Shown here in pieces: positions 1-15,496 of a DNA stretch of 32,000 bases; the stretch's first letter is position 1; every line of letters starts with the position of its first letter. The DNA is from Erysipelotrichaceae bacterium. GTDB taxonomy: Bacteria; Bacillota_I; Bacilli_A; Erysipelotrichales; Erysipelotrichaceae. The notes beneath the pieces are model-generated. The model ran no database searches and was not told the DNA's origin. It was given only the letters and a program-made list of their open reading frames with translations. The translations under genes and the position numbers were made by a program. The DNA lies in the NCBI GenBank assembly GCA_030604855.1, contig JAUVVC010000003.1, forward strand, positions 60,001 to 92,000. Reading direction: 5' to 3'.

Positions 1-1
1 T

Positions 2-1339
2 GAACAACTCTATGAAGCGATACCCGAAAATGAACGTCCTTCTCGAAGCTATTTCTTGGAATTCTTAAAAAATATCAAAGGGGTTTACACGAGCCAATAT
101 GATGTCTTTAAAAATCGATTCTTCGTCTCGACCCTTCACAATAAAGATTTATTAGCCAAACGAAGATTACTTGTTATGCTCGCAGCGTGAGAGAAAGAGA
201 ATGGACGTCCAGCGAGCTGGTTCGTCGAACCCGGCGGATTGCCCAATAAATACAAAGAACTCATTCTTAGAATGGCGGAGAGACCCGGACCGTATCGAAA
301 CGGAGGAAGCGTGAATCTCGAGGAGAGCTTCATCTGGATGTCCTATTTTGCCGGACAACAAAAAATGGCACTCAAGAAAAGAAACACCCCAAAGCCAAAG
401 CCCGAAATGATTCTGGAGTTGGGCGACGGAATGGTGATAGATTTAAGCGATGATAATGAGGTTATTTCGCTCGATAACGAAAACAAAGTTTATATTGGGA
501 AAAACAGCAAATGGGGAAACCCTTTCGAGAGCGGTGGCATATGGACCGATACCGAATGTAAAGAACTTTACCCCGCTCACTTCTGGAGTAGCAATCTATA
601 CGACGAACTCGATGAGCTCATCAATAAGAGACTTTACGTCCACACAGGCGAGGATGAGTTCCACGGCCAATTCCTACGTGACATGATTAAAGAGAAGGCG
701 GCGGGGAACAAGCCCGGACCGACCATTCCCCCGATACATCTCTACAACCTTCACCGAAGAAAGATATACCTTGAAATCGTTAAAGATAAAGAGAACCCTA
801 AAAAAATAGGGAAGCTAGTCTTCCATATGTTCGATGTTGAGGATGACCTGACTTTTGAGAAAGTCATTGCTTGTCTAAAGACCATTTTCGAATTTATGAC
901 CTACCATGAGATTTTAAGACCGTTCTCAATCAACATCTACACCTGAAATGAGAAGAAGCGGGACCTTTACAAAGAACGTTTCCGGATTTCTCTTAAAGCG
1001 ATACTTCGAAAGAAATTCCATACGGCCGGACTCAATGTCGATGCCACATTCCGAAGATACTTGAAAGACATCTACGACGAGGCCTTTAAAGGCTATAATT
1101 TCATTGATTTAAATATCGACAGATTCTTATACGAGAAGGGGAAAGAATATTGAACGAAGGGGAACAACCTAAACCTACTGGAATATGCTGGTGAAGACTG
1201 GCGAGACCACGTAAAAAAGGACCCAAACAAGGCGAAATTCGAGGATTTAAGCAATCAGGCGAGTATTAACCTGTCCCAGTCCGAAAACGAGGCAAAAAAC
1301 GCCTTAAATGAGGATGACGAATATTTCGATTTAGGGTAA
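2..1339 (+). CDS. Hypothetical protein, 5'-partial (445+ aa), DUF4326-like central motif; needs TGA=sense at 188, 944, 1151
   Basis: Frame 2 is open from the window edge to TAA 1337-1339 with no TAA/TAG. Track ORF 239-946 is only its middle piece. The motif VYIGKNSKWGNPF resembles the DUF4326 signature. A hairpin terminator follows. Confidence 0.7.
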
Positions 1340-1378
1340 AATAGAAGAGACTTCCCCCCGAAGTTATAAGTAGTTGAG

Positions 1379-1406
1379 AAGCGCAATAATAGGCGCTTTT
1401 CTTTTT
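1379..1406 (+). terminator. Intrinsic terminator after the 2-1339 gene
   Basis: AGCGC-aataatag-GCGCT hairpin followed by a T-run. Confidence 0.6.
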
Positions 1407-1411
1407 GCCAT

Positions 1412-1436
1412 AAAAAAAGCCGATATTATTCGGCTT
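1412..1436 (-). terminator. Intrinsic terminator for the minus-strand LRR operon
   Basis: AGCCG-aataatat-CGGCT hairpin followed by TTTTTTT when read on the minus strand. Confidence 0.6.
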
Positions 1437-1440
1437 AATT

Positions 1441-1548
1441 TTATCGAGTGAAAATGTAGATGAGTGAAATGATGAAGAGTGCTGCATTGATGATACGACT
1501 GAATTTCTTGTCGATTCTTCGGAAGTTTTCGAGTTCTTCTTTATTCAT
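1441..1548 (-). CDS. Possible 35-aa tail-anchored membrane peptide (MNKEELENFRRIDKKFSRIINAALFIISLIYIFTR)
   Basis: The ATG overlaps the LRR gene stop (ATGAATAA). The ORF ends at TAA just before the minus-strand terminator and has a hydrophobic C-terminus. There is no homology evidence. Confidence 0.3.
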   Translation of the reverse strand: MNKEELENFRRIDKKFSRIINAALFIISLIYIFTR

Positions 1549-2716
1549 AGAAGGCATCCGCGTTAACACCGAAGGCAGCGGCAGCAGCTTGGTATGCTGA
1601 TAGCTGGCCGGCTGGAACGGAAATTGTGTTCGTTGTTAGATTGTTGTTTTCTTGGAAGATATTCGCTCCGAATAGTGCTGGCAATTCGCCATTGAATGCA
1701 ACAGAGGTTAATTGGTTGTGTGCGAACGCACCTTCCCCAACTTCTATTACGCTGCTTGGAATAATGATTGATGTTAATTGATTTCCGGTGAATGCGTGAT
1801 ATCCAATTCACACTACACTGCCCGGAATTTCGACCGAAGTAAGTTCGTTGTTTTGAAAGGCACCACCACTAATCATTATAATCCCATCCGGAATGGACAC
1901 CGAGGTCAATTTGTTATTGGCAAAAGCATTGACACCAATATCTACAACGCTGTCGGGGATTACCACCGAAGTCAATTGGTTATCGGCGAATGCACTACCA
2001 CCAATCGTTGTGACGCTGTCCGGAATAACGACAGATGTTAATTGGTTATATGTGAATGCTGCTCCTTGAATCGTTATTAAGCTACTTGGAATTTCGATAG
2101 AAGTTAAACTGTTAATGCTGAATGCGAATTCCCCAATATTTATAACACTGTTCGGAATATTCACAGAATTTAAGTTGTTGAGGTTGAAGGCACCTTCTTC
2201 AATCGTCGTGACACTATCCGGAATTACAACCGAGGTCAGTTGATTATTAGTGAGGGACCATGCGCCAATCGAGGTGATGCTATTAGGAATAACAACTGAT
2301 GTCAATTCTTTCTCAGCTAATGAATATTCCAATAATCCTACGACTGGTAGTCCGTCATCTCGTTTTGAGGGGATAATTAAATTTCTATCCGTTCCTGTAT
2401 ACCTTATAATTTCTCATCCATTTGATTCGTTATTTCATGCGAATGTAAATTCACTTTCCAAGTTAATGTCCGCTGGATTCACATTGAGAGATGTATCGTA
2501 ACCATAAGTGTCGTATACACCACTTGCCGTAGCTGTATTATTCCCGAAAAGGTTTAGACTTTCTAATTTGCCCATTCCGGATGTCATCAGTTGACTTCCT
2601 GTCGTTCCGAAACTAATCATCAGTAAGAATCCCGAAGCGAGAATGAACCCGCCGGTAATCACCGTTTCAATCGATACATAACCCTTTTCTCAATTCCTAA
2701 ATCAATTCTTTTTCAT
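1541..2716 (-). CDS. Membrane-anchored BspA-type leucine-rich-repeat surface protein, 391 aa in code 4 (5 sense TGA at 2702, 2690, 2435, 2414, 1808)
   Basis: RBS GGAGA precedes ATG 2716. The N-terminus reads MKKNWFRNWEKGYVSIETVITGGFILASGFLLMI (TM helix). About 22-aa repeats (NQLTSVVIPDSVTTIGxxAF) continue in phase across the TGA at 1808-1810. The gene ends at TAA 1541-1543. Track ORFs 2435-2662 and 1808-2332 are fragments of this gene. Confidence 0.85.
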
Positions 2717-2910
2717 AGTCTGTCTCCATCGCTCTTAAGCGTTCTAACATATACATTTTATGCAGTTATCGCTGTATTATTCCATTTAAAAAATATACCT
2801 TGCATTAAGAAATGCTAAATCAAGGTTTGTATTATTTTTTCATATTTAGATATTAAACTACGAATACGTCCATATAATATGGCAGATATAACCTATCAGA
2901 GGAGCGTTCT

Positions 2911-3240
2911 ATGAAAAAAGCAGCTGCAGTTAAAGTTTTACAAATCCGTCTTGAAGAGTATAAATTCAAGCGGTTGGAAGAAGAAGCCAAGAAATCTGGT
3001 GTTTCCATGAGTGAATATGCTCGTGAGATTATCTTTGGCGATGAAGAACCGTTCGATGCGCGGGAGCTCAATAAAAAATATCAAGAAACTATTGAGGGTG
3101 AGTGCTTAAAATATCTAAAAAATAGCATCGAAACTATGAGCCTCGCGGAGTTTATCAGTTTGAAGGCTTTCTTAAAGCGTCGAAAGAAAGAAATGAAAGG
3201 CGATGAGTTCATGCAACTGCCGTTTAATCTCGAGGAATAA
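2911..3240 (+). CDS. Ribbon-helix-helix protein, MobC/CopG-like (109 aa)
   Basis: RBS AGAGGAG. The N-terminal sequence VKVLQIRLEEYKFKRLEEEAKKSGVSMSEYAREII is a typical RHH motif (beta strand plus two helices). Stop codon is TAA. Confidence 0.6.
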   Translation: MKKAAAVKVLQIRLEEYKFKRLEEEAKKSGVSMSEYAREIIFGDEEPFDARELNKKYQETIEGECLKYLKNSIETMSLAEFISLKAFLKRRKKEMKGDEFMQLPFNLEE

Positions 3241-3242
3241 CC

Positions 3243-5765
3243 ATGAAAGCGAAACTGAAATGACTCGGGGTATTTACAACAATTATCTTTTTATTATCGA
3301 TGAACTTTGCACCCGTCTACGCGGGAGGGAAAAATCAATATTTTTTATCATTTCTCTATAGCACCGATTCTCGAACATTCGGTTCGATTGTCGTTCCAAC
3401 TGTTGGACGAGATAACATGGAGGATAAGTATTCCTTTCTAGATTCAACCGATGCATTACTCTTTCTTTCCATTGATGGTTCGGGAGCCATTAGCGTTCCT
3501 GGCGAGATGAAAGCCGGGACATATCTCGAAAAACACCCATATACATTTCCTGAATTCTACGATGTTGACGGCACCCAAGCGGATTACGCGATGGGATTGA
3601 ATACAGGAAACGCCCTTACGAAATCATTGAATAATGCGATTTCATTCGTATTAAAGCCCGTGACCGCGGCTGGCCGTAAAGAGCTTGGCGTTGAGTTGCC
3701 GGCAACCGTATTTGGGTTAGCAACCGCGATTTCGAACTCGGGGTATGATGTTTTATATAATAATATAAATGTATTTAAATCGTATACCTATGGCGGCAAG
3801 CTCAAATGAGAAATAAAGCAAGCGTCCGTAGAGGACATGAAGACGGTTAAGAACGTGCTTCAAGGCTCGACTCATAAAGACTATGTCGTGATTAAAAACC
3901 ATAAAGGTGACACTGTAACGCTTCCTTACGCGGTTCCGAAAGGTTATGCGGAAGGACAGGAACTTTACGCCCAGCAGAGCACACAGGTTCCCTTAAGCAC
4001 GATTACCCAGAAGTTATCATGGGGACACGTTGTCTATTTATCTTCAGAACAACTCAAAAACGGAGTCACCGTTCAAAATAACAGCCAAATGAAACAGCAA
4101 GACTTTATCAGTAAAGCGGTTGGTGAATTCCTGAATAATTTCATCAGTGGCATCGCGAGTGCATTAGGACTTTACGATGTTGAAGAATTGATGTTCAACG
4201 CTGGAAACCGTGGCGCAACCCATTACTTTGGAATTATGCCACTCAGCTGGTTGAATCCAGTTAATATCCTGAATTTAATTGCAACCGTTATTTCGATGGT
4301 TGTTATCGGGATTTCAATTATCCGCATGTTGATTAAACGAAACATGGCAGCCATTAGCCCGAGCATTAAAGTTGAGTTGATGGATGGTGTAAAAGACCTA
4401 TTCATCGTTGCGACTGGCATCATGTTGTTTATGCCGGCATTATTTATTTTATTGAACTTTAACAACGTCATTGTTGCCGCGATGCGAGACATGGCACCGA
4501 GTGGAGTGACCTTAGGGTTAACATCCGGTGGGGATTTCATTGGAATCGTAGCCGCAGTCATGAATTTCGCGTATTTCTTCATTATCGTCATGCTGAACAT
4601 TACTTATATCACCCGTGCGGTGACCCTGGCCATTCTCATTGGGTTCGCACCATTCTTTATTAGCATGTTTGCTGCTGGACCGGCAGCCAAGAAGATTTCA
4701 GGCACATGGATGAAGGAATTGGTTTCGAATATCTTCATGCAGACGTTCAATGCAGCATTACTTTTAGTCTTCTCGAACATTGGTTCATTCGGAGGCTTGT
4801 CGGTCATTGAAAAGTTCGCATTATTAATCAGTTTCCTTCCATTGACGAAGTTCTTTAAAACATCATTGATGAATCTCGGAAGTGGTTCTGATGCCGCCGC
4901 CGATAAAACCGCTGGTGCATTCTCATCGTTTGCAACTGGTTTAGTGGCCGGCGGACTACACGCTGGCTTCGATGGGAAATCCGAAAAGAAAGGGAAAATC
5001 GTTCCTGCTGGTGGCGAAACGAATGTTAGTGCACCGACCGCTGACGGCACCGTTCCAAGTGCCAATGTGTCCGCTGAAGGAAATAATACAAAAGATTCCT
5101 TCCGTGGAAGTCTCTCTAAGACCTTTAAGAACGCGACTGCTAAAGGAGAAGGAAAACGTCTTCTCGGGAAGACAGCCGGAATGATGGCCGGTGCTGGATT
5201 ATCCTTGGGTTCAGCCGCAACCGGTGGAAGCCCATTACTTGGTAACTCAGCCTTATTTTCAGGCGCACAGTCGATTGTCAACCAAGCAGAAGGATGGCTA
5301 ATGCATGATGATGCGCCGAGTGGACCTGCAGTTGATAGCATGACCGGCGCCGACATGAAAGACATGGGGGTTTCCGGATTCGATAACGAGAATATCGTTC
5401 TAAACCCTACGGTTCGTGGAAACATCAATGAAAGCCCAGAATCGAGAAGTGAATTCGTTGAAAGCATCAATCAATACAACGAAAAGCCTGAAAATATGAA
5501 CAAACCGGTTGAAATTCTCTATAAAGACAATGGAAAAGACGTCTATGGCGTGAAAATTCCAGGCGTCAAAGGAAAGACCGTAACCCGAAAAGACCCAAGC
5601 ACAGGTCGAGCAATTGCGAGTGAAAGTAAATTCACTGGCGGTGCAAATCTTCAGAATTTCAAGCCTGTTTTAAGTAAATACACTAAGGAGAAAGAAAAAG
5701 AGCCAGCTAAACCAGTTGACTTAAGTAAATTTGGAAGTATCGACCAAGATACATCCGGAACCTAA
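3243..5765 (+). CDS. Large envelope protein, 840 aa in code 4: signal peptide, ectodomain, polytopic TM core resembling VirB6/TrbL-type T4SS proteins, G/A/S-rich and K-rich tail
   Basis: The start ATG AAA GCG AAA CTG AAA TGA CTC encodes MKAKLKWLGVFTTIIFLLSMNFAPVYA, a signal peptide. The TGA at 3807 joins track ORFs 3300-3809 and 3837-5765 in the same frame with no TAA/TAG between them. There are at least 6 hydrophobic helices between about 4230 and 4870. Confidence 0.75.
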
Positions 5766-5783
5766 TCCGGAGGGGAGAATCTT

Positions 5784-7715
5784 ATGAAATGAGTTTTTAG
5801 AACATTAGCACTGATAGCGTTGATAATGGTGTCGACGCTATCGGCTACCGAAGACGTTCACGCCGCCGAAAAGAGTCTGAATACCAGTATGGTCATTCAG
5901 TTCTCAACCGAAATCCAATACAGTGCGAATCTAAAGGACTTTAAGATTGCACTTTCATATTTAATGTATCCTTCTGCTAACCCCGGAAATCAGCTTAGAG
6001 AAACCGTTTTACTCGATAATGGGACATCCATTTCGCGTAAATCCAATACCTTAAGCGTCTATGTTCCAGGAGCCGATGGCATCGAATATACGGGGAATTT
6101 CTCGTTCGACTATTCGTATAATAGCGCGACAGGAAGTTTATCTGTGAATGGTTCGTCTGTTCCACTGAACAGCAGCACATACATCAATGCGAATGCTTAC
6201 CCTGAAGCCTACGTGAATGCCGCCGTAGTTGGTGTGGGAATGAATCCACAACCGTTCAATTTGGTAAAAGCTTTTACCGGCATGTCTGACAGCCAAATCA
6301 CTGCATTCAATGCGAGAGCCAATGGCGAAATTACGGATAATTTAGTGTTGGCATCCAGCATCTATGGAACCAATATCCAGACGAATACGAAATTGACAAT
6401 GTTCGTTAACGTATGGAAGCGTAGACCCGATGGGACTTATGATAAATCCCAAGCAGCAACTCGTGTTCAGGTTATCTACACCGCAGCCGACTTAATGAAT
6501 GGGAAAGCCCAATCCGCGAGCTGGACTGGCCAGCAGTATTTCAGACAGCTCGTAGGAGCGAGAACGGCAAGTCATTATTCCAAAACGAAGACTGATGTAA
6601 TCTCAACGGGTAAGTTTAGATATGAATATCAGGTTCAGGACTATATTCGAACTGATTATTCGTGGGGGTTCAACGGAAGCATAGGTTCAGTGAGCGGAAT
6701 CACGAATGGAGTCTGCTATCCGAGTGCAACCAAGAAGTGCTTTACGACTTTTTATAAATACACAAGATACCAAATCAAATGTTCGAACTGGTGAAGAACA
6801 TCCTTCTCTTATGGATGGAGCGCATCGAGTTCTGTTGGTGATTCGTGGTGTAAATCGAATACGAGCCAACCCTATTATCGTTCTGTAAACTCATCAGAAA
6901 CGACTGATTGAACAACGATGAGTTCGTTCAACGGAAGAAGCAGAACGGCAACTGGACATACTTATCAGACGCGTATTGGAACGATGGTTTGGGGTGCGCC
7001 TTACTGGCAATTCTTCGCGCCGAGTGCGGAGCAAAGACATTTATCAACAAATAAAGTTGAATTAAAAGATGTGATTTACACACCTTATTATCGAATTGAA
7101 GAAAACAGCGTATCAGTTGACCCTGTTGATAAAATCACCGAAGGGGAAGTAAATAGTCGTGTGAATACGTATGCGGCCGGAGCGGTGGATGTTTTAGTGC
7201 TTAGAAAGAACGGACACAATCCAGAATTGCCTGTTTCTACCTATAATTCATATGCTTCTGCTGTTAGAGTTGAAGCTACGAATTTGGCAAATTCAAGCTT
7301 CAGAGAAGGCCATTATTGAGGTTTGTATCTGTATCTGACCGGACACTGGAGAGCTGTTGAGGTTCCAGTTGGTTGGTTTAGCTTATCCGCAAACACGAGC
7401 AGTGGCACGATTCTTTCTGGATACTACGATGATACGATTATTACGCCGCCATTACCGGACCCAGATACCGAAACTGAAATTGCACTCGTTGATTTCACTT
7501 ACGTTGAAAGCGTGTTTAAGCAATTAAAGGCACAGTATCCAAGCTATACGCTCAATGCAGTTCAAGATAAACTCATTGAAGCTCTAAGAGCCGATGGGAA
7601 CAACGCCGCGAAGAAAACTGTCGCTCTTCACGATAGTTATATCGAAGAGGGAATGACGAAATCCAATGTATTCATTACGATTAGCAGCGATTTAAATATC
7701 AATTTAAAGGACTAA
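5784..7715 (+). CDS. Secreted protein of unknown function, 643 aa in code 4 (sense TGA at 5790, 6792, 6909, 7317)
   Basis: RBS GGAGGGGAG lies 6 nt before ATG 5784. The N-terminus MKWVFRTLALIALIMVSTLSATEDVHA is a signal peptide. Track ORFs 5820-6794, 6918-7319 and 7323-7715 share one frame, and I checked the gaps codon by codon for TAA/TAG. Stop codon is TAA at 7713. Confidence 0.8.
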
Positions 7716-7807
7716 TGCAAGGTTTTGCCATAGTTTTTTATAAAATGACTATATTACTTTATTGAACAATATAATTATATTATAATATAAATATATTAAA
7801 AAAACAC

Positions 7808-9118
7808 ATGGAGATGGAAATGAACATCAAGAAAATCCTTACAATCCTTACACTCATTGTACTCGCGCTTAGCGCGGGTGCTTTGGTGTATTTCAACACT
7901 AAGACGGATGTCGTCCTAAATGGCGACCCGGTACTCACCAACACTACCAACAATGAAATTAAAGAACCTGTCAAGGTGAATAACGGCAAGAAGCTTTCTT
8001 GCTACGATTTTATTAACACCTTACTTGAGAAGGATGGGTTCACGCATCTTGAAGGAACAAAGTGGAGCAGAGGGGAAAACAATTTTTTCATCTTTGATTT
8101 GGAGAAGGAAGAATTCCAAATTGCCGACGCTTACCATACCGATGTTCTTCCGAGCGAATGGTATAAAAATGAATATGAAAAATATGTGAGCTTCATTTAT
8201 CGAAACGAAACACGAGTATTGGACTTTATGAGTTTTGATGGAGCATCTGTTTACGTTGCCTTTTCTATGGATAATAAAGAACTTAACGATACTGAAAATG
8301 GTTTCTATGACTTCCCGATTTGGATGGACTACTATTTGACTCAATTCGAAACTTATGGTTGTTCTTATAATCCTGAATTTAAGACTCAACTTTCAACAGC
8401 AACTGTAGAGGATGTTATTTCTGTTTTTGATGTGAAATCAACCGATGGCGTCATACGGTATTTTAACGACGTCCATGTCGAAGGGGATGTAAAAGACCAC
8501 CCGCGCTATATCGAGGTCCAGAGCTTTGAAGAGTTTCACAAGGTAAAGGATGAGTATGGGTTTGAAATTATGTACATGTTCAATATTATCAGCAGCAACA
8601 AAGGCAAAGTCTTTGAAACTGAATCAGACCACCTTCAGGCTAGTATCATTGAGGAATTCGTAAAGGATGTTGTATACCCTAATATTCCGGAACGAAACGA
8701 TGCTAAACAAGTCGAAACGCTTGGTATATATTTCATCGATATTGATAACCCAAATGGCAATTTTAAAAGCCTGTACAAAGCGCCAACAAAAGGAGTTCCT
8801 TTCTATTATGAGCCAGAACTTGTCGGTAAAGATTTAAGAAAACTAAGCACCCCTTACGAAGGAACCGTTATAGGTGCCAATAAGAATACCTCGACAACCT
8901 ATGATTACACCCCGTTTAGTGTCTCTGACATCCAGAATGTCTTGGATGATTACATCAGACGAATCAATGCTGTCAATGCTTCGGTTTCCTTCTCAGACGA
9001 CTTCATCCGTAACTACACCCGCCCATTTGCGTACGAATGGCAGAAGCAGATGGGGTTGACTGAACTGTTCAATAAAAAGTATGGTTTTATTGACCACAGC
9101 ATTGTATACTTGAATTAA
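7808..9118 (+). CDS. N-terminally membrane-anchored protein of unknown function (436 aa; 432 aa if ATG 7820 is used)
   Basis: Long intact ORF with an AT-rich promoter region upstream. GGAG lies 6 nt before ATG 7820. TM helix ILTILTLIVLALSAGALV. All 4 Trp codons are TGG and there is no TGA. Confidence 0.75.
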   Translation: MEMEMNIKKILTILTLIVLALSAGALVYFNTKTDVVLNGDPVLTNTTNNEIKEPVKVNNGKKLSCYDFINTLLEKDGFTHLEGTKWSRGENNFFIFDLEKEEFQIADAYHTDVLPSEWYKNEYEKYVSFIYRNETRVLDFMSFDGASVYVAFSMDNKELNDTENGFYDFPIWMDYYLTQFETYGCSYNPEFKTQLSTATVEDVISVFDVKSTDGVIRYFNDVHVEGDVKDHPRYIEVQSFEEFHKVKDEYGFEIMYMFNIISSNKGKVFETESDHLQASIIEEFVKDVVYPNIPERNDAKQVETLGIYFIDIDNPNGNFKSLYKAPTKGVPFYYEPELVGKDLRKLSTPYEGTVIGANKNTSTTYDYTPFSVSDIQNVLDDYIRRINAVNASVSFSDDFIRNYTRPFAYEWQKQMGLTELFNKKYGFIDHSIVYLN

Positions 9119-9180
9119 TTTCTACAAGAAATCATTGTCTCTGTAAATAAGCAAGTGTTAAAAGAATTTATGCAAAAGTC

Positions 9181-9208
9181 TTGAAATCTAGTATGTTTGT
9201 ACTATAAT
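9181..9208 (+). promoter_or_regulatory. Sigma-70-type promoter of the antitoxin RNA
   Basis: TTGAAA (9181-9186), 16-nt spacer, TATAAT (9203-9208). Confidence 0.6.
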
Positions 9209-9238
9209 GAAGATGTAGTTAAGCATACTTCGCAAGAT

Positions 9239-9342
9239 GATGACGTGTGACGGTTCCGACACGTCGGTAAAATAAAAGTGACCGAGCGAAGATGACGTGT
9301 GACGGTTCCGACACGTCGGTAAAATAAAAGTGACCGAGCGAA
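9239..9342 (+). repeat. 2 x 52-nt perfect tandem direct repeat (GATGACGTGTGACGGTTCCGACACGTCGGTAAAATAAAAGTGACCGAGCGAA), with partial copies at both flanks
   Basis: Copies 9239-9290 and 9291-9342 are identical base for base. Each contains the hairpin GACGTGT...ACACGTC and an A-rich single-stranded tract. Confidence 0.95.
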
Positions 9343-9351
9343 GAAAGTATT

Positions 9352-9378
9352 GGGAAACTCTAAGTTTCCCATTTTTTT
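9352..9378 (+). terminator. Intrinsic terminator between the antitoxin repeats and the toxin gene
   Basis: GGGAAAC-tctaa-GTTTCCC hairpin followed by ATTTTTTT. Confidence 0.8.
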
Positions 9379-9400
9379 AGAAAAAAAGTGGGGGAATATT

Positions 9401-9868
9401 ATGTTTGATTACGAAATTCGAGAACTTACTACTACTTTCTATTTGGCATACCCAAGTTCCAAGTACAGTGAAATTGTGACCAAGAATATTCGACCATATG
9501 ATGTTGCGGTGTTTGACACACCAGAAGACTTCTATATTTGCATTCCTTTCAGAAGCTATATAAGGCATTCTTATTGCTACCATTTTAAGCATTCGATGCG
9601 CAGCCAAGTTAAACAATCTGGGCTAGATTATACAAAAATTGTTATTGTGAAGAATGAGTCTTACATTGGGAAATGTACAGTTGTCGATAATGATGAAGCA
9701 AAAGAGCTCAGAATGAATGCAGTTAATATTCACAAAGATGCACTAAAATATGTTAATGGTTATATAAATCATTTGAAGGGTACAAAAATACTCGCTAGTG
9801 AAGAATTTAATCGTAGGTATAAATATACAACACTGTCTTACTTTCATGCAGAGCTAGGGATAGAATAA
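9401..9868 (+). CDS. Type III toxin candidate (ToxN/AbiQ/CptN-like endoribonuclease), 155 aa
   Basis: RBS GGGGGAA lies 7 nt before ATG 9401. The size and the position directly after the repeat RNA and terminator fit a type III toxin. The family call rests on architecture; sequence identity was not verified. Confidence 0.6.
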   Translation: MFDYEIRELTTTFYLAYPSSKYSEIVTKNIRPYDVAVFDTPEDFYICIPFRSYIRHSYCYHFKHSMRSQVKQSGLDYTKIVIVKNESYIGKCTVVDNDEAKELRMNAVNIHKDALKYVNGYINHLKGTKILASEEFNRRYKYTTLSYFHAELGIE

Positions 9869-9876
9869 TTAACATG

Positions 9877-9900
9877 AACACCTCGAAAAAGGTGTTTTTA
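9877..9900 (+). terminator. Terminator of the AACACC/GGTGTT family
   Basis: AACACC-tcgaaaaa-GGTGTT followed by TTTA. Confidence 0.7.
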
Positions 9901-10160
9901 ATTTTCCGAAAAATAACGGGTAGATTTTTTGTTAGACATTTAGACTTTCTAGTGAAATTTTCTACGATTTTTGAAGGACTTCTCTTGAAAAAAACTAATA
10001 AAAAGCGCAAAAATGCCCTAAAAGTGCTCAAGAAACCCTGTTTTAAGTCAAAATCCCGTCAGGCTCAGAACCCGACGACATTTTAGAAGCCGATATTTTT
10101 GAAGGGGATAATTCATTAATTACTTATATTTCTCTCTTGGAAAATCTATATTGAAAACAG

Positions 10161-10251
10161 GAATATAAAAGGGGAAAAGAACGACGGAAACGATTCAGCC
10201 CCCCGTGTTTCAAGAAAACAATTAGGCCAAAGAGCCCCAGGAGGTTGTTTT
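10161..10251 (+). promoter_or_regulatory. Conserved leader, copy 1 (most diverged)
   Basis: ATAAAAGGGGAAAAGAACGACGGAAACGATTCAGCCCCCC ... GGCCAAAGAGCCCCAGGAGG followed by ATG. Confidence 0.6.
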
Positions 10252-10596
10252 ATGGAAGAGAAGTATTTATTTGATGATGAAGAAGAAGAGATTATAATTC
10301 CATCTAAGGAGCTTATTAAACGGCTGATTGCGGAGTACGGAATCAACAGAAGTGATATAACGTCATTTCTCTATGATGTTTCTAAGGGACAGGTTGACGG
10401 TTTCTGTCACGGAAGTCGTTTTAGAATTTCTTCCGATTACGAATATCTAAAGCGACATGATGTTCTTTCACATCTTTATATTGATAGGGATGACATCGGA
10501 CATTATATCTACACGGAAAAATTCTATGATGACGTCAAGAACATCATTCATTCCTTATTTAGAGAAGCCGAACTGCAATTCATCTCAAATAATTAG
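10252..10596 (+). CDS. Small acidic hypothetical protein (114 aa)
   Basis: ATG lies 7 nt after RBS AGGAGG. Stop is TAG, followed at once by a terminator. No Trp codon. Confidence 0.7.
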   Translation: MEEKYLFDDEEEEIIIPSKELIKRLIAEYGINRSDITSFLYDVSKGQVDGFCHGSRFRISSDYEYLKRHDVLSHLYIDRDDIGHYIYTEKFYDDVKNIIHSLFREAELQFISNN

Positions 10597-10619
10597 AAAC
10601 GCCGTAATGGCGTTTTTTT
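10597..10619 (+). terminator. Intrinsic terminator
   Basis: AAACGCC-gtaat-GGCGTTT followed by TTTT. Confidence 0.75.
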
Positions 10620-10660
10620 ATATTGTTATAATATAGAGAATCGTTGAGTAGAATAATGCA

Positions 10661-10742
10661 TCAAATAAAAAGGGGAAAGAACAGGAAACGTTCGCCCCCT
10701 TTATTGGACACAATAAGCCAAAATAAGGCGGGAGGATGTTTT
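10661..10742 (+). promoter_or_regulatory. Conserved leader, copy 2
   Basis: CAAATAAAAAGGGGAAAGAACAGGAAACGTTCGCCCCCTTTATTGG ... GCCAAAATAAGGCGGGAGG. A TGTTATAAT extended -10 box lies upstream at 10623-10631. Confidence 0.65.
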
Positions 10743-11033
10743 ATGGAAGAGCTATATTTATTTGAGGGTTTTAATTTTACGCACAAAGAATTGCAAGTGA
10801 TTGAGAAGGTTAGAGAACAGAAATTCACAATTCAGAACTTCATTATGTTCTTCGGGTTCAACCGCACCAACGAGTTAATCCAAGCTAAGGTTCTAGGTGT
10901 CACTGGCAAGAACGAAAGAGGCGACGACTTGTATGGTTTTATTTTCTTTAATGAGAAAACGATGTCCTTTTCCTTACTTGGTTTACTTGTAAAAATTTCA
11001 CTCGAGAATCAATTCGGTAAATTACCCGAGTAA
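10743..11033 (+). CDS. Small hypothetical protein (96 aa)
   Basis: ATG lies 7 nt after RBS GGGAGG. The upstream part of track ORF 10644-11033 is the leader. Stop is TAA, then a terminator. Confidence 0.7.
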   Translation: MEELYLFEGFNFTHKELQVIEKVREQKFTIQNFIMFFGFNRTNELIQAKVLGVTGKNERGDDLYGFIFFNEKTMSFSLLGLLVKISLENQFGKLPE

Positions 11034-11047
11034 GCCTTCGAATATGA

Positions 11048-11072
11048 GAACACCAGAATAATGGTGTTTTTC
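11048..11072 (+). terminator. Terminator of the AACACC/GGTGTT family
   Basis: GAACACC-agaataat-GGTGTTT followed by TT. Confidence 0.75.
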
Positions 11073-11120
11073 TTTGTTTCATCGTTATAATACAAAAAAT
11101 CATTGAGTATAATGGGAATA

Positions 11121-11199
11121 TCAATAAAAAAGGGGAATAAACAGGAAGCGTTCACCCCTTTATTGGATTATAAGCCAAAATAAGGCGGGAGGATGTTGT
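11121..11199 (+). promoter_or_regulatory. Conserved leader, copy 3
   Basis: CAATAAAAAAGGGGAATAAACAGGAAGCGTTCACCCCTTTATTGG ... GCCAAAATAAGGCGGGAGG. Confidence 0.65.
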
Positions 11200-11514
11200 G
11201 TGGATTGCGAAGTGGTAGAGGCAGTAGAAGAGGTTGAAGAAGAATTTAAGGGTGTTGATTGAGAATTTATCGCTCAGCTTCATAACAGAACTGCAGCCGA
11301 TATTAGAGAATTCGTTTCGATTCTCGCGGAAGAAGAACAGATGACGAAACACCTATCATTTAGACTTGTCGATGATGATTTCTCTGGTCTCGGCGTGATG
11401 GTTTCATTTCGCGAAATGACAGAGTATAGTGAGTTATTTCGTTCGTTCTGTATTTTTTTGAAAGTCTCGGGATATACCTTTAAGAGTATCTGAAACCCGA
11501 AGCTTAAAGACTAA
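11200..11514 (+). CDS. Small acidic hypothetical protein, 104 aa in code 4 (GTG start; sense TGA at 11260 and 11491)
   Basis: The GTG sits at exactly the position of the ATG in leader copy 2 (GGGAGGATGTTGT-GTG versus GGGAGGATGTTTT-ATG). The frame is open to TAA 11512, and a terminator follows at once. The standard-code ORF track misses this gene. Confidence 0.65.
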
Positions 11515-11537
11515 GAACACCTGAAAAGGTGTTTTTT
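11515..11537 (+). terminator. Terminator of the AACACC/GGTGTT family
   Basis: GAACACC-tgaaaa-GGTGTT followed by TTTTT. Confidence 0.75.
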
Positions 11538-11594
11538 ACTGTATTATTTTTTATTATCCTTATATTTTTAAGGTTTCGATTATAGAATACAGTA

Positions 11595-11690
11595 TCAAAT
11601 AAAAAAAGGGGAACGAAAACTGGAAACATTCACCCCTTTTGTTTTGATTTGAAACACAAAACAAGGCCAAAAGAGCCGGGGAGAATGTGT
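11595..11690 (+). promoter_or_regulatory. Conserved leader, copy 4
   Basis: Nearly identical to copy 5 apart from one hairpin loop: AAAGGGGAACGAAAACTGGAAACATTCACCCCTTTTGTTTTG-loop-CAAAACAAGGCCAAAAGAGCCGGGGAGAATGTGT. Confidence 0.7.
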
Positions 11691-12044
11691 ATGAGAATGA
11701 ATATGGAATTCGTCAGTGGATTAAACGTGTTGGAGCAGTCCTGAATCAGGGATTCTCTACACGAACGCATCGAGCAGATTATAATGGAAAGCAAGGCGGA
11801 AGTTTTCGCTTTCGACGGCTGTCATAAGATTTATCTAATCGAGGATGAGAACGACATTGAAGAGGCGCGCAAATACGGATACGACATTTATCGTATCGAA
11901 CGCTTGGAAAGTGCCTTTCGACACAGTTGCTCAATGCGGTTCATTCAGGATTGGAATTTTAAAAAGTCCTATATTAAACAGTTTGAATTTATTGATGTTG
12001 TTGAACAAAAGGAGAAAGAAAATGAGATTTCCTTCACTGATTAA
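11691..12044 (+). CDS. Small hypothetical protein, 117 aa in code 4 (sense TGA at 11742)
   Basis: ATG lies 7 nt after RBS GGGGAG. Track ORF 11784-12044 is the C-terminal part in the same frame. Confidence 0.65.
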
Positions 12045-12303
12045 AGAAGCGAATATTTTTATTCCGACTATTGGCGAGAATTATAATCACACACTTGAAT
12101 ACATCAAGGATGACGTGTTAGATTATGCCGTTGACTTCGATATATACTATCGTGTTAACTGTTCTAATTCCGAAGATGGTAAGAGCGTAAATGTTCGAAT
12201 AATGTGTAAGACCGAACGTGAGTCTGAAGAAGCACTGATGTTCATCGGTTATATTCTTCAGTCTTATCCAGGAATGACCTGTTCGTACTCGAATGAAGAA
12301 TAA
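12022..12303 (+). CDS. Small acidic hypothetical protein (93 aa)
   Basis: RBS AAGGAG lies 7 nt before ATG 12022. It overlaps the previous gene end by 23 nt. The 5' part of track ORF 11845-12303 is an out-of-frame overlap. Confidence 0.6.
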   Translation: MRFPSLIKEANIFIPTIGENYNHTLEYIKDDVLDYAVDFDIYYRVNCSNSEDGKSVNVRIMCKTERESEEALMFIGYILQSYPGMTCSYSNEE

Positions 12304-12326
12304 AACACCAGTAAAATGGTGTTTTT
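12303..12326 (+). terminator. Terminator of the AACACC/GGTGTT family
   Basis: AAACACC-agtaaaat-GGTGTTT followed by TT. Confidence 0.75.
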
Positions 12327-12374
12327 CTTATTTTTATCATTATAAATCAAATAATTCATGCATATAATTGAATA

Positions 12375-12466
12375 TCAATAAAAAAGGGGAACGAAAACTG
12401 GAAACATTCACCCCTTTTGTTTTGAGAAACGCAAAACAAGGCCAAAAGAGCCGGGGAGAATGTGTG
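12375..12466 (+). promoter_or_regulatory. Conserved leader, copy 5
   Basis: Same sequence as copy 4 apart from the hairpin loop (agaaacg versus atttgaaaca). The distance from GGGG to the start codon differs by 2 nt, so the frame differs between the two copies. Confidence 0.7.
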
Positions 12467-12688
12467 ATGAAGAGAGCAGTTAAGGTTTTTGGTATTTTAA
12501 TGAATACCATATTAGGAGAAAACAACGAGTCTTTTGAAGAAGAAATGGCATTTGCAGATGCTGTTACGGCTTGAGAGCGCGGAGAAGGTGCTTTAATTAG
12601 AGAAGAAGCCCACAAAGCATCACAAGAAGAGCGATTGGCTTATTTAGATGACCAACACGAATTAATGATGGAATACTTAGGTGCATAG
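12467..12688 (+). CDS. Small acidic hypothetical protein, 73 aa in code 4 (sense TGA at 12572)
   Basis: ATG follows RBS GGGGAG. The frame is open to TAG 12686. Confidence 0.6.
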
Positions 12689-12690
12689 TT

Positions 12691-12954
12691 ATGAAAAGAA
12701 ACTATCAATTAACCGAAAAGCATTTCGAATTCGTCGATGGAAAATGAGTCTTGGTTCGTCCGGAATCTGTTGAAGTTGTTAATCACGAGTATTACCAAAA
12801 TTGTGTTTCTAAAGAAGCGATTAAGTTCTTTAGAGCATTAGGCGGTAAAGAAAACTTAATCTTTAAAAACGGGAAAGCGATTTTGGCCAGTGTCAGTCCT
12901 AATGGATTGATGAAAACTGTTAGAACGTTCGAAACGTTGGATTTTGAGGATTAA
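12691..12954 (+). CDS. Small hypothetical protein, 87 aa in code 4 (sense TGA at 12745)
   Basis: ATG lies 2 nt after the previous stop. Track ORF 12751-12954 is its C-terminal part in the same frame. Confidence 0.6.
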
Positions 12955-12956
12955 GC

Positions 12957-13220
12957 ATGACGTACAATGGAAAAAGCTACGCACGCATCTGTCCGAATCT
13001 ATTCGGGGAGCTGACGTTGAATGGCGAAGCTCTAAAAGCCGGCGATTATATCGCAATTCTTAGACTCGAAAAAGAAGAGCCTTATGAGGAGTTTGACACG
13101 GTTTTCTTTGGACATGTCGGTTACACAGACCGAAAAGCATTCCAACTTGAGAACTGCTGACCGCACGACCCGGAGGTTGAGGTATATGGACTATGAGCCG
13201 GAATACCTGAAAAGGATTAA
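12957..13220 (+). CDS. Small hypothetical protein, 87 aa in code 4 (sense TGA at 13158 and 13194)
   Basis: ATG lies 2 nt after the previous stop. Read-through ends at TAA 13218, 8 nt before a terminator. Confidence 0.55.
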
Positions 13221-13228
13221 TTAAACAC

Positions 13229-13500: not shown

Positions 13501-13540
13501 TTTAAATATATGGCTCAACAAGAGCTGAGGAGATATGATT

Positions 13541-14314
13541 ATGGGTAAAATTATCGCGTTAGCGAATCAAAAGGGTGGTGTTTCGAAGACGACATCATCC
13601 GCATTAATGGCCTATGGCCTTCATCATCGAGGTTTTAAAGTTTTATTGGTGGACTTAGACCCACAGCGGAATCTTTCAAAAAATATGAACGCGAAGACAA
13701 CCGGAGACGTTAAAACTTCCATGGAGCTACTTCTAGGGACGGCGACGGCGGAAGAAGCAATCCAGCACCTACCGTATTTCGACATCATCCCAGCGAAGAA
13801 AGAATTGGCTAGTATTGAGCCATTAATGCCATTGTCTGGTCGATTAAAAAAGCTTAAGAAGGGTTTAGCAGCCGTAAAGGACAAATATAATTATATTATT
13901 TTAGACACTGCACCGTCCCTAGGGGTACTTTCTGTAAACGCATTAGTGGCAGCGGATGAAGTTATTGTCCCGTCCACTGCTTCCGTATTCTCAATTGAAG
14001 GGTTTTTGGACTTTTTCCAGAATGTCAGAGACGTACAAGAGGACGATAACCCTGACTTAGTTATTAGAGGCGTACTCATCACCATGTTCAACGGTCGAGC
14101 CGTGATTTCAAAAGAATTGGCAGAAATGACAAAAACGCTCAGCGATAAATTCGATGTTAAAACCTTTGATTCTAAAATCCGCAGCTCAGTCTTCATTTCC
14201 GAGAGCCAAGTGCACCGATTCGACCCGTTCGTTGTCGACCCGAAAAACATCGTATGCCAAGACTTCAATAATTTCTTAGATGAATTTTTAGAAGGAGGAG
14301 CTCAAAATGGCTAA
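13541..14314 (+). CDS. parA: ParA/Soj-family partition ATPase
   Basis: Deviant Walker A motif KGGVSKTT near the N-terminus, and ILDTAPS (Walker B-like). GAGGAG lies 8 nt before ATG 13541; the track start at 13535 is too close to the RBS. Confidence 0.9.
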   Translation: MGKIIALANQKGGVSKTTSSALMAYGLHHRGFKVLLVDLDPQRNLSKNMNAKTTGDVKTSMELLLGTATAEEAIQHLPYFDIIPAKKELASIEPLMPLSGRLKKLKKGLAAVKDKYNYIILDTAPSLGVLSVNALVAADEVIVPSTASVFSIEGFLDFFQNVRDVQEDDNPDLVIRGVLITMFNGRAVISKELAEMTKTLSDKFDVKTFDSKIRSSVFISESQVHRFDPFVVDPKNIVCQDFNNFLDEFLEGGAQNG

Positions 14315-14789
14315 GAAAACACCCATACCTACAGACCGCTTCATGGAAGAAGAGGATATCCCACTCTATAAGCGCGCGGCTGGAATGAAAGCACAACAAG
14401 AAGAAAAACCTGTTGAGCCCAAGCCGAAAAAGGATAAGCCGAAGAAATCCAGTCCCGGAAATGATTTAGTCTTTTGTATGTTTAGGCTTAGACCAGACCA
14501 GATAGAAGCACTCGGTATTCTCTACGCGAAAACTCGTGCGAACGTATCCGGAATGGTACGCGACGCTCTAGAAGCGTATCTAAGCGATTATCTTACCGAA
14601 AAGATAACCAAGGTTCATATTCCGCTTGAATCGAACCAGACGGCTGGAAATGCGCTGGAGACGAAAGGGATTCGATTAAGCCCTAGACTCATCGAAGCGG
14701 TTGGAATTGTTGCTGTTTCCAACGGAGTTAACCGGAGTGAAATTGTTCGATTCGCGATTGATGAATTTTTAGCTAAAAAAGACGCCTAG
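14307..14789 (+). CDS. Tandem ribbon-helix-helix DNA-binding protein, probable centromere-binding partner of ParA
   Basis: Overlaps the parA stop by 8 nt. Lys/Pro-rich linker. Two RHH-like units (FRLRPDQIEALGILYAKTRANVSGMVRDALEAYL and IRLSPRLIEAVGIVAVSNGVNRSEIVRFAIDEFL). Confidence 0.65.
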   Translation: MAKKTPIPTDRFMEEEDIPLYKRAAGMKAQQEEKPVEPKPKKDKPKKSSPGNDLVFCMFRLRPDQIEALGILYAKTRANVSGMVRDALEAYLSDYLTEKITKVHIPLESNQTAGNALETKGIRLSPRLIEAVGIVAVSNGVNRSEIVRFAIDEFLAKKDA

Positions 14790-14840: not shown

Positions 14841-15416
14841 ATGGAAATTAATGTTGTTGCCAATAATAAAGCTATCGTCTCATATGACAACGGTACTGAA
14901 ATTAAGATACCTTCACAGATGTTTCCTTTAAATGGTGAGCTAAAGCTTTTTACATCGAATAATACAGAGAATTTAACGGATTCAACGATTGAGTCTATAT
15001 TCAATTCTGTAAAGCCAAGAATGGGTAAATGTTATTATAACGCCCAGGACTTAATTGATGCCTTGATTGTTGGCGGTATTGACTCGAAACGCATAAAATC
15101 CTATGTAGGTTGGCTATTTGTTGGGGATACGAGACCAGTTCATCACTGTTTTGTTATGCTGGACGACAAACATGTTCTGGATTATGGACCCTTGAAGCTG
15201 TTTGAAAATTTTGATGAGTACACAGATATGGATTCACTCGATAGATTCAAGAATGACATCATTGAGAATGATGTGCTATTGAATTCACAGAAGATGACCT
15301 TCGGAAGAGCGCTGAACGTGATTGCCTATGTCGTTTCAGAGTGTAGCCCCAAAGAAGGCGAGAAGATACGAGCGAAGCTCGAAAAAGCTTACCCAAAGCA
15401 CATCAGTTTTCTTTAG
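14841..15416 (+). CDS. Hypothetical protein (191 aa)
   Basis: Intact ORF. TATAAT lies about 15 nt upstream and there is no clear RBS. Its single Trp codon is TGG. Confidence 0.55.
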   Translation: MEINVVANNKAIVSYDNGTEIKIPSQMFPLNGELKLFTSNNTENLTDSTIESIFNSVKPRMGKCYYNAQDLIDALIVGGIDSKRIKSYVGWLFVGDTRPVHHCFVMLDDKHVLDYGPLKLFENFDEYTDMDSLDRFKNDIIENDVLLNSQKMTFGRALNVIAYVVSECSPKEGEKIRAKLEKAYPKHISFL

Positions 15417-15429
15417 GTATCATGAAATG

Positions 15430-15455: not shown

Positions 15456-15496
15456 GAGCTTAATCATTATGCATTAAAAACATACTGTAAAACCAT

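Follow-up and report, generated by a model that had tools for sequence, protein, structure and literature searches.

A non-phage mobile element with TGA-recoded genes in a Firmicute of standard genetic code

The window, a 32,000-nucleotide stretch of DNA from a low-GC Firmicute that uses the standard genetic code, raises the question of whether the genes in its first 13.2 kb are read through in-frame TGA codons, and what kind of mobile element would carry such genes in a host that stops at TGA. An open reading frame scan with TAA and TAG as the only stops reproduced every coordinate given in the initial annotation, namely 21 in-frame TGA over nine genes, and found no in-frame TAA or TAG. The long frames lie at 2-1339 (+), 1541-2734 (-), 3228-5765 (+) and 5766-7715 (+), and five small ones between 11.1 and 13.2 kb. 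TGA accounts for only 44% of stop trinucleotides in all frames of positions 1-13220, so that its presence at 21 of 21 in-frame stops is not due to chance (P about 4e-8). When translation tables 11 and 4 were compared, the fraction of positions 1-13220 covered by open reading frames of at least 150 aa rose from 0.52 to 0.74; coverage did not change in 13221-18851 and changed only slightly in the host part. The recoded genes and their TGA positions are as follows.

2..1339, + strand: g1, C-terminal 445 of 474 aa, with a DUF4326 domain; TGAs at 188, 944 and 1151
1541..2716, - strand: BspA-type LRR surface protein, 391 aa, with an N-terminal TM helix (Pfam LRR_5, E=1.4e-54); TGAs at plus-strand positions 2702-2704, 2690-2692, 2435-2437, 2414-2416 and 1808-1810 (codons 5, 9, 94, 101 and 303)
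3243..5765, + strand: VirB6/TrbL_3-like polytopic membrane protein, 840 aa, with a signal peptide and homologs carrying PF19590; TGAs at 3261 (codon 7) and 3807 (codon 189)
5784..7715, + strand: g5, secreted, 643 aa, family-specific; TGAs at 5790, 6792, 6909 and 7317 (codons 3, 337, 376 and 512)
10252..13220, + strand: eight small genes, g8-g15, several with a repeated promoter, hairpin and RBS upstream and a repeated terminator downstream; TGAs in g10 (11260, 11491), g11 (11742), g13 (12572), g14 (12745) and g15, the ninth TGA-containing gene (12957-13220; 13158, 13194)

These genes belong to an integrative element of 23,808 bp, of which the window contains the right-hand 18.85 kb up to its last base at 18851. 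Its insertion site is the 3' end of the gene for tRNA-Thr(CGU), and a 19-bp direct repeat flanks it; the right copy of this repeat is in the window.

18852..18870, + strand: attR, 19-bp core CCTGTAGTCGGCACCATTT, the last bases of tRNA-Thr(CGU) plus 3 nt

The attL copy of the same 19-mer is at L016:26-44, a locus that also shows where g1 begins, 85 nt beyond the left edge of the window. In a strain of 99% identity the site is empty and contains the 19-mer as a single copy (L013:633-651), which makes the insertion recent and, presumably, active. Independent assemblies show an identical element sequence, which together with the att repeats and the empty site rules out a misjoin of element and chromosome. 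In the whole element, ten genes contain TGA (gA, g1, the LRR and VirB6-like genes, g5 and five small genes); they hold 22 TGA, against about 48 TGG in the entire element, and within them roughly every second Trp codon is TGA.

The flanking chromosome served as the control, and the earlier reading of TGA as a true stop there holds.

25537..26667, + strand: host glxK, full length, matching TIGR00045 at positions 1-374 of 375; TGA stop at 26665-26667
27461..27706, + strand: host SHOCT-domain gene; TGA stop at 27704-27706, next gene from 27720

The glxK product thus matches its family end to end and stops at normal length, and the SHOCT gene stops just before the next start. Host genes, long ones included, have 0 in-frame TGA versus 42 TGG, and the Trp codons of element and host differ accordingly (Fisher p=1e-5). 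TGA terminates 4 of 17 host genes versus 0 of 23 element genes (p=0.03), all of which end at TAA or TAG. The further claim that each element gene is followed directly by a terminator did not stand: terminator-like hairpins were found 3' of g1, LRR, g7, g8, g9, g12, g15 and o15, and none right after NikA, VirB6 (only an opposite-strand site), g5 or g6. These last four genes are tightly packed on a single strand and are probably co-transcribed. At least three related elements also adjoin host-type genes free of in-frame TGA, with host GC contents of 40%, 45% and about 56%; among the genes flanking those in L005 and L002, only DUF1232 (L005) ends at TGA. Flanking genes that stop at TGA were thus observed for L005 as well as for the host of the window. 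An Erysipelotrichaceae MAG is a carrier of a related element.

Comparison with homologues shows that TGA in the element is a sense codon for Trp. Across six related loci, 45 of the 66 codons that align with a TGA are TGG; the two codons replace one another at conserved Trp columns, with switches in both directions. In g1, the TGAs at 188 and 944 are opposite TGG in L002. Codon 189 of the VirB6-like protein corresponds to Trp in every homolog covering it and to TGG in 6/6 aligned loci, and this protein has four invariant Trp columns, each with TGA in a different element; codons 337, 376 and 512 of g5 are Trp columns invariant across four elements. Relative to an 87%-identical relative, dN/dS was 0.046 for VirB6, 0.065 for g5 and 0.095 for g1 (the last against L001), and most segments downstream of TGAs in these genes gave 0.04-0.10. 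By these values, and with frames interrupted by TGA alone, the recoded genes are intact, functional and under strong purifying selection. Four TGAs fall in codons 3-9 of three genes, where relatives mostly have Lys or another non-Trp residue (p about 0.009), and these early TGAs look like a gate rather than drift.

Recoding does not extend through the whole element. The initial annotation was right about TGA in nine genes; as a refinement, the integrase, the restriction-modification genes and g6 are TGA-free. Within the window, TGA-free parts of the element include the following.

2911..3240, + strand: NikA-like ribbon-helix-helix protein of the relaxosome accessory type, 109 aa (Pfam PF21983, E=7e-7)
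7808..9118, + strand: g6, membrane-anchored, 436 aa; 4 TGG, 0 TGA
9181..9868, + strand: promoter, two 52-nt tandem repeats (9236-9339), terminator (9351-9371) and g7 (9401-9868, 155 aa); TGA-free
13535..14789, + strand: plasmid-type partition pair, ParA ATPase (13535-14314) and RHH protein (14307-14789), with stops TAA and TAG
14841..17222, + strand: o15 (14841-15416), a 1.4-kb stretch without convincing ORF and o17 (16794-17222); standard-code compatible
17499..18746, + strand: tyrosine integrase, 415 aa (phrog_1, E=1e-42; NCBIfam tyrosine recombinase models); 6 TGG, 0 TGA

ParA-RHH, NikA and g7 are uninformative on the code, as they have no Trp codons and are trivially TGA-free. Trp occurs several times each in the integrase, in a Sau3AI-like restriction-modification pair and in g6, and is written as TGG throughout. 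Integrase, Dcm and REase together have 0 TGA among 19 Trp codons versus 22 among about 51 in the rest of the element (p=3e-4), and full-length g6 homologs in L005 and L008 are likewise without TGA. By this codon usage the element is a mosaic of two codes, a test built on few genes; alternatively, the restriction-modification and integrase genes could be recent acquisitions from standard-code DNA.

Judged by homology, the gene content is plasmid- and conjugation-derived and not viral (NikA-like, VirB6-like, ParA-RHH, integrase). The NikA-like gene is kept upstream of the VirB6-like gene in L001, L002, L005 and L008, and in Bacillus and Jeotgalibacillus plasmids the VirB6-like homolog immediately follows VirB4. 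The architecture at 9181..9868 is suggestive of a type III toxin-antitoxin system, and g7 matches phrog_8049 (E=4e-23). Pfam and PDB searches gave no assignment for g6, for which just 17 relatives were found in 1.84 billion representative proteins, and Pfam, PHROG and PDB searches gave no match for g5. Searches of the complete element with PHROGs and Pfam turned up no gene for terminase, portal, capsid, tail or lysis, neither 50,697 phage records nor IMG/VR contained DNA or protein matches, and a plasmid DNA search with the element gave no match either. The description as plasmid/ICE-type modules without phage structural genes was therefore borne out, except that 'ICE' is too strong a label, because VirB4, VirD4 and relaxase are absent from the complete element. 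The reported absence of a UCA-anticodon tRNA can be widened to the whole 23.8 kb, in which no tRNA of any kind was detectable, no Rfam match was obtained, and no suppressor tRNA, release factor or TrpRS was found.

The element is real, non-phage and stop-codon-recoded. We consider it probable that it is an integrative plasmid-like element with TGA=Trp genes, for which suppression is supplied in trans and in which the genetic code acts as a gate on the transfer and surface genes. Since the complete element yielded no tRNA, suppression has to be provided from outside it; a co-resident recoded helper, a host-encoded suppressor or a readthrough-prone tRNA-Trp variant would be candidates. As to a helper, TGA recoding is also found in relatives that have the full PrgI-VirB4-VirB6-hydrolase module. 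This explanation is further favoured by tRNA-Trp(CCA) species with a 4-bp anticodon stem, which can read UGA and are present in diverse bacteria, and by suppressor tRNAs in 0.3% of standard-code genomes (PMC13092985). The recoded gene set would be translationally locked in the resting host and expressed only when opal-to-Trp suppression is available, while the TGA-free integrase, restriction-modification genes and g6 would be those needed for entry and persistence. The element is probably mobilizable. Where a gene has four or five TGAs, suppression needs to be efficient, which, as a counterpoint to this explanation, would also lengthen the host's TGA-terminated proteins.

There may instead be no dedicated suppressor, the host's ordinary tRNA-Trp(CCA) reading UGA as a near-cognate codon at low efficiency and the TGAs throttling costly genes to a very low level, a reading that we regard as unlikely. 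UGA is the leakiest stop codon, and Bacillus subtilis, in work ascribed to Lovett et al. in 1991, reportedly reads it as Trp at a few percent. The lack of a tRNA in the element and the base after TGA (A or G in 18 of 20) fit this reading, as do tRNA-Trp(CCA) variants with high UGA reading in diverse bacteria (PMC13092985). However, four or five TGAs (LRR, g5) at a few percent each would leave a yield of about 1e-6, avoidance of TGA stops by 23/23 element genes suggests that efficient suppression has been experienced, and the share of TGA among Trp codons in recoded genes is like that of true code-4 genomes.

Slightly more doubtful still is a TGA-recoded prophage, i.e. a non-tailed temperate virus of a novel type with the VirB6-like, g5, g6 and LRR proteins as virion or envelope components, which would add the element to the recoded prophages already known. 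Its 23.8 kb size, tRNA integration, standard-code integrase and recoded 'late' genes resemble what is seen in the Garnet and Topaz prophages, three large proteins (g1, g5, g6) are without known function, and g7 and a few small proteins match PHROG families. Against this stand the lack of phage hallmark genes in the PHROGs and Pfam searches and of matches to phage records and IMG/VR, the conjugation/plasmid-type or surface LRR nature of all classifiable large proteins, and the place of the VirB6-like gene within PrgI-VirB4-VirB6-hydrolase operons in relatives.

It is improbable that the element arrived recently from a code-4 Mollicute, its recoded genes being silent and only its standard-code maintenance genes at work. 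Erysipelotrichaceae are close to code-4 Mollicutes, a TGA share of ~50% is typical of code-4 origin, and ATPases for self-transfer are missing; but at least three related elements sit beside host-type genes free of in-frame TGA, in hosts of differing GC content, the recoded genes show neither TAA/TAG stops nor frameshifts at dN/dS of 0.04-0.1, TGG and TGA have switched both ways among elements, the core family gene g6 is TGA-free in full-length loci, and the insertion is recent. Artefact or decay (pseudogenes, sequencing errors, chimeric assembly, selenocysteine) is already refuted, for although in-frame stops are the usual pseudogene signature and MAG contigs can be chimeric, all 21 stops are TGA only, selection is purifying, TGA aligns with TGG and not Cys codons, and independent assemblies agree, with precise att repeats and an empty site.

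As far as found in the literature, TGA recoding in a standard-code host has been described only for phages, against which the proposed plasmid-like element with code-gated genes has to be compared. Recoded phages and prophages of standard-code gut bacteria use code 4 (TGA to Trp) or code 15 (TAG to Gln) (10.1101/2021.08.26.457843; Mgcod, 10.1101/2022.06.29.495998), and the two prophages analysed in depth in the former study are TAG-recoded. Like them, the element uses the host's stop codon as sense (TGA to Trp), is a block or mosaic of two codes, avoids the recoded stop as terminator and has a low GC content; the integrase of recoded phages is in standard code, the same arrangement as here (10.1101/2021.08.26.457843). 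In recoded phages, too, a suppressor tRNA frequently escapes detection, being found in only 35% of those with code 4 (Borges et al., 10.1101/2021.08.26.457843). Unlike recoded phages, the element is without terminase, capsid, tail and lysis genes and without suppressor tRNA, release factor and TrpRS, and its content is T4SS- or plasmid-derived.

With Firmicute ICEs and IMEs the element shares a tyrosine integrase, a 19-bp att repeat at a tRNA gene 3' end, a VirB6/TrbL_3-like protein (about 30% identity), a NikA-like protein, and restriction-modification and putative toxin-antitoxin cargo. Their PrgI-TraC-like-VirB4-VirB6-hydrolase module (e.g. B. thuringiensis BTB_502p NC_018878.1, Jeotgalibacillus plasmid CP009417.1) differs in that the element has no VirB4, VirD4, relaxase or cell-wall hydrolase, and gA, g1, g5 and g6 instead; moreover, the standard code suffices for an intact reading of the plasmid homologs and of the distant relative L018, whereas the element genes use TGA as Trp. 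Code-4 Mollicute elements (Mycoplasma ICEs, Spiroplasma plasmids) likewise use TGA as Trp in conjugation-type genes, and their host lineages are phylogenetic neighbours of Erysipelotrichaceae. There, however, the host shares the code of its element, whereas the host described here stops at TGA.

We scanned the window for open reading frames closed by TAA or TAG only. Four long frames are open save for TGA, at 2–1339 (+), 1541–2734 (−), 3228–5765 (+), and 5766–7715 (+), and five more short TGA-interrupted frames lie between 11.1 and 13.2 kb, including the ninth recoded gene at 12957–13220 (TGA at 13158 and 13194). All 21 in-frame TGA codons that the initial annotation had placed in nine genes of window 1–13220 were recovered at exactly the same positions. 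None of the nine genes contains an in-frame TAA or TAG and each terminates at one of these two codons. TGA accounts for 44% of stop trinucleotides over all frames of 1–13220, and the probability of obtaining 21 of 21 TGA by chance is ~4e-8. When TGA is read through (translation table 4 versus 11), the fraction of 1–13220 covered by ORFs of ≥150 aa goes up from 0.52 to 0.74, while ORF coverage is unchanged at 13221–18851 and nearly unchanged in the host part. Homology also supports the start codons proposed for these genes, with the signal peptide of the VirB6-like protein aligning with those of two homologs (P0002 and P0008).

The recoded genes are part of an integrated element that could be delimited on both sides. 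From 18852 on, the window is matched at 99% identity by a separate assembly of a related strain (L013), in which the element's place is taken by an uninterrupted tRNA-Thr(CGU) and, after it, a PCC-domain gene. A Logan contig (L016, run SRR14872665) is 100% identical to window 1–9268 and adds 4,982 bases leftward, the first 41 of which are the 3' part of tRNA-Thr(CGU). The 19-mer CCTGTAGTCGGCACCATTT is present as attL at L016:26–44, as attR at window 18852–18870, and as a single copy in the empty site; the element is thus 23,808 bp long and its complete sequence is known. A chimeric assembly, which had been raised as a concern for the element/chromosome junction, is excluded by the att 19-mers, the empty site of L013, and the agreement with L016. 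From left to right, the element contains the following features.

L016:300–3133, Dcm-type methylase and Sau3AI/MutH-like endonuclease, a complete type II restriction-modification pair, both genes TGA-free
Between this pair and gA, 1.1-kb ORF-free stretch holding a GC-rich, hairpin-rich island
gA, 168 aa, one TGA
g1, 474 aa, DUF4326 protein, three TGA
BspA-type LRR protein, opposite strand, five TGA
NikA-like RHH protein, between the LRR gene and the VirB6-like gene
VirB6/TrbL_3-like protein, two TGA
g5, four TGA
g6, window 7808–9118, no TGA
Type III toxin-antitoxin-like cassette with g7, after g6
Eight small genes in repeated cassettes, seven TGA
Right end, in order: ParA and RHH protein, o15, 1.4-kb gap, o17, tyrosine integrase (window 17499–18746), attR

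In the flanking chromosome TGA is a genuine stop codon, as the initial annotation had held. The host genes of the window and L013 have 42 TGG and no in-frame TGA, and glxK (25537–26667), which ends at TGA, matches TIGR00045 over positions 1–374 of 375. A code-4 host is rejected because host genes are without in-frame TGA and some end at this codon. TGA stops terminate none of the 23 element genes versus four of 17 host genes (p=0.03), namely glxK, a SHOCT gene (TGA at 27704–27706), and one gene each of AraC and TetR type, which suggests that the element meets conditions where TGA does not terminate.

The amino acid at TGA was assessed by comparison with the DNA of L001 and of relatives from JGI metagenomes (L002 and L008), Logan contigs (L010 and L011), and a 2.27-Mb contig of an Erysipelotrichaceae MAG (L005). 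All six have TGA-interrupted frames of like kind at differing positions. L001 encodes a VirB6-like protein 94% identical to that of the window, with a DNA identity of ~87%. Among the 13 homologs of the 840-aa VirB6-like protein, all that cover codon 189 have Trp there. Codon alignments of the VirB6-like gene and g5, drawn from seven and five loci, respectively, place TGG opposite TGA in 45 of 66 cases. Four Trp columns of the VirB6 alignment are TGG throughout save for TGA in one or two loci, with another locus affected in each column. In g5, three of the four TGAs fall on Trp columns invariant across four elements. The other TGAs of the alignments are at variable positions. The alignments identify Trp as the residue specified by TGA. 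Ratios of dN/dS between the window and L001 are 0.046 for the VirB6-like gene, 0.065 for g5, and 0.095 for g1, and remain at 0.04–0.10 in most segments of these genes that lie past one to four TGAs. Together with the alignments, such low values downstream of TGAs exclude pseudogenes, sequencing errors, and selenocysteine, and selenoprotein genes are further rejected because TGA faces TGG rather than Cys/Sec and the 21 sites are spread over nine unrelated genes. We therefore regard it as very probable that TGA is a Trp sense codon in functional genes of an integrated element residing in a standard-code host.

Usage of the two Trp codons is uneven within the element. The complete element has 22 TGA and ~48 TGG, with 19 TGG and no TGA in the integrase, methylase, and endonuclease taken together (Fisher p=3e-4 versus the rest of the element; the Trp-codon counts of gA and g1 used in the tests were each off by one, which leaves the results unchanged). 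The g6 gene has four TGG and no TGA and is also TGA-free in the full-length homologs of L005 and L008. Four TGAs are located within codons 3–9 of three genes (VirB6-like, g5, and LRR; binomial p ~0.009), at positions occupied in the more distant relatives by Lys, Asn, Arg, or other non-Trp residues. This early-codon cluster looks like a translational gate rather than neutral drift between TGG and TGA. The sequence context around the TGAs showed nothing distinctive beyond A or G as the next base.

The initial annotation had described plasmid/ICE-type modules and no phage structural genes. Both observations stand, with the qualification that a VirB4-type ATPase, a VirD4 coupling protein, and a relaxase were not found in the complete element. 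Searches of all proteins >150 aa against PHROGs and Pfam gave no terminase, portal, major capsid, tail, holin, or endolysin. No match was obtained for the DNA of window 1–13.5 kb in phage and plasmid collections, for g5 or the VirB6 alignment in IMG/VR, for VirB6 against phages by tblastn, or in two scans of genome contigs. A tailed or other known prophage is rejected on the lack of hallmark genes and of matches to phage records or IMG/VR. The element has a site-specific recombinase with flanking att repeats and a VirB6/TrbL-type channel protein, homologs of which carry PF19590 and follow VirB4 on plasmids. On megaplasmids of Bacillus thuringiensis and Jeotgalibacillus, a VirB6-like homolog (~30% identity) is encoded directly after VirB4. 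The gene order on BTB_502p is PrgI, a hypothetical gene, VirB4, the VirB6-like homolog, and an NlpC/P60 hydrolase; on the Jeotgalibacillus plasmid the neighbors besides VirB4 carry no annotation.

The order gA, g1, LRR, NikA, VirB6, g5, g6 is common to the window and L001, L002, L005, and L008, and this sub-family is without VirB4, VirD4, relaxase, and hydrolase. Among the recoded relatives, VirB4 was confined to the more distant L010 and L011; these two and the distant relative L018 have the Gram-positive type IV secretion operon seen on the plasmids. TGA interrupts the frames of L010 and L011, whereas the genes of L018 and the plasmid homologs are intact under the standard code. Within this lineage of conjugation genes, recoding thus characterizes a single clade. 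Of the features of integrative mobilizable elements, we found the NikA-like protein and a candidate oriT island, and neither a relaxase nor a helper. Taken together, a non-viral, conjugation- or plasmid-derived element is the probable identity. In L002, the host flank has 55–60% GC (19400–22500) and the element windows (1000–15000) are >10 points lower (locus mean 40%), indicating that the element family crosses large compositional distances. The left end of L001 (1–1460) adjoins another tyrosine integrase (30% identical, with a TGA stop) and the 3' end of another tRNA, which suggests either that islands lie in tandem or that the integration module was exchanged.

Several regions of the element have distinctive architectures. 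Window 9181–9868 comprises a strong, sigma-70-like promoter, two 52-nt tandem repeats with a hairpin in each (9236–9339), a terminator (9351–9371), an RBS, and g7 (155 aa, phrog_8049). By gene order, g7 and the upstream repeats have a type III toxin-antitoxin layout; g7 had no ToxN, AbiQ, PADLOC, or PDB match that would carry membership by sequence. Six or seven small-gene cassettes at 10100–13260 are assembled from common parts, i.e. a −10 box repeat, a GGGG...CCCC-TTTT leader hairpin, a repeated RBS segment, an ORF of 70–150 aa, and an AACACC...GGTGTTTTT terminator; the 5' leader hairpin looks like an attenuator. The island at L016:3640–4210, ~0.8–1.3 kb left of the window start, is ORF-free, has 57–63% GC in a 40%-GC element, and contains many short palindromes, with RNA fold z-scores of −7.5 (minus strand) and −4.8 (plus strand). 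Rfam gave no match for it. In L001, L005, and L008, the gA homologs are likewise preceded by GC-rich islands. Candidate identities for the L016 island are an oriT, a single-strand origin, and a new ncRNA. Between the integrase stop and attR, at window 18784–18830, there is a nearly perfect, AT-rich palindrome (...CATTACAAATGATATATATATTTGTAATG...) that may be a recombinase/excisionase binding site or a terminator. The 1.4-kb gap at 15.4–16.8 kb held no convincing ORF, repeat, or RNA. No match resulted from the homologous-protein search for g5 or the exact look-up for g6, profiles of both gave no meaningful PDB or Pfam assignment, and the single-sequence AlphaFold model of g6 (pLDDT 35) had no usable fold. 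On the host side, the gene of a SHOCT-domain protein (27720–28568) contains 42-bp tandem repeats at 28110–28290 that encode a GYRGMMGGYNQSNF motif (DNA self-match 92–94%).

The finding that no UCA-anticodon tRNA is visible now extends to the complete 23.8-kb element (ARAGORN and Rfam), which is also without a suppressor tRNA, a release factor, TrpRS, or any RF or aaRS domain. ARAGORN detected no tRNA in the window, L016, or any related locus, its sole hit being the host tRNA-Thr of the empty site. Rfam gave nothing at gathering thresholds in the window and loci and only noise at E up to 5–10 in 1–19 kb and the GC-rich island; 12 related loci (L001–L003, L005, L008–L011, and others) likewise had no suppressor tRNA or Rfam hits. 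The element thus does not carry its decoder, which might be supplied in trans by a co-resident recoded element or phage. Alternatively, decoding could rest on a host suppressor, on a variant tRNA-Trp(CCA) whose anticodon stem has 4 bp, or on plain near-cognate readthrough. Host suppressors are reported in 0.3% of standard-code genomes, and tRNA-Trp(CCA) species of this 4-bp-stem type can read UGA (PMC13092985). Constitutive efficient suppression is unlikely, given that host genes have retained TGA stops and contain no TGA-Trp.

Under the reading that we tentatively put forward, the transfer and surface genes would be translatable only once a trans-acting opal-to-Trp suppressor appears, so that the genetic code would act as an expression lock. 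The suppressor might be provided by a recoded conjugative element or phage resident in the same cell ('code hitch-hiking') or by a host tRNA-Trp variant whose expression is conditional. That a suppressor supplied in trans opens such a translational lock is a serious possibility, to which we attach nearly as much belief as doubt. If it is true, elements of this kind could be a reservoir or stepping stone for UGA-to-Trp reassignment, because they occur in the standard-code bacteria most closely related to the code-4 Mollicutes. The full combination of a non-viral, decoder-free element, the code as lock, an opal-to-Trp suppressor in trans, and such a reservoir role is somewhat less likely, though still plausible. 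Ordinary Firmicute cells, or other mobile elements in them, must possess some UGA-decoding activity that acts in trans. The element is a directly testable system for how one cell runs two codes at once and bears on how UGA-to-Trp reassignment could begin in a lineage next to the Mollicutes. Gene callers and ICE/plasmid finders built on table 11 will fragment and miss such elements.

Phages and prophages with a recoded stop codon have already been described from standard-code hosts, with features that include a standard-code integrase, a lock hypothesis, and an often undetectable suppressor, which is missing in ~65% of code-4 phages (10.1101/2021.08.26.457843). In the literature, our coverage of which was incomplete, stop-codon recoding within standard-code hosts was found for phages only, where it is thought to time late-gene expression, and no naturally recoded plasmid, ICE, or IME in such a host was found. 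The recoding mechanism of the present element is the same as in recoded phages; it differs from them in element class and in being without its own decoder. It shows the same strategy in a plasmid-/conjugation-type integrative element that carries no decoder of its own and is a clean mosaic of two codes.
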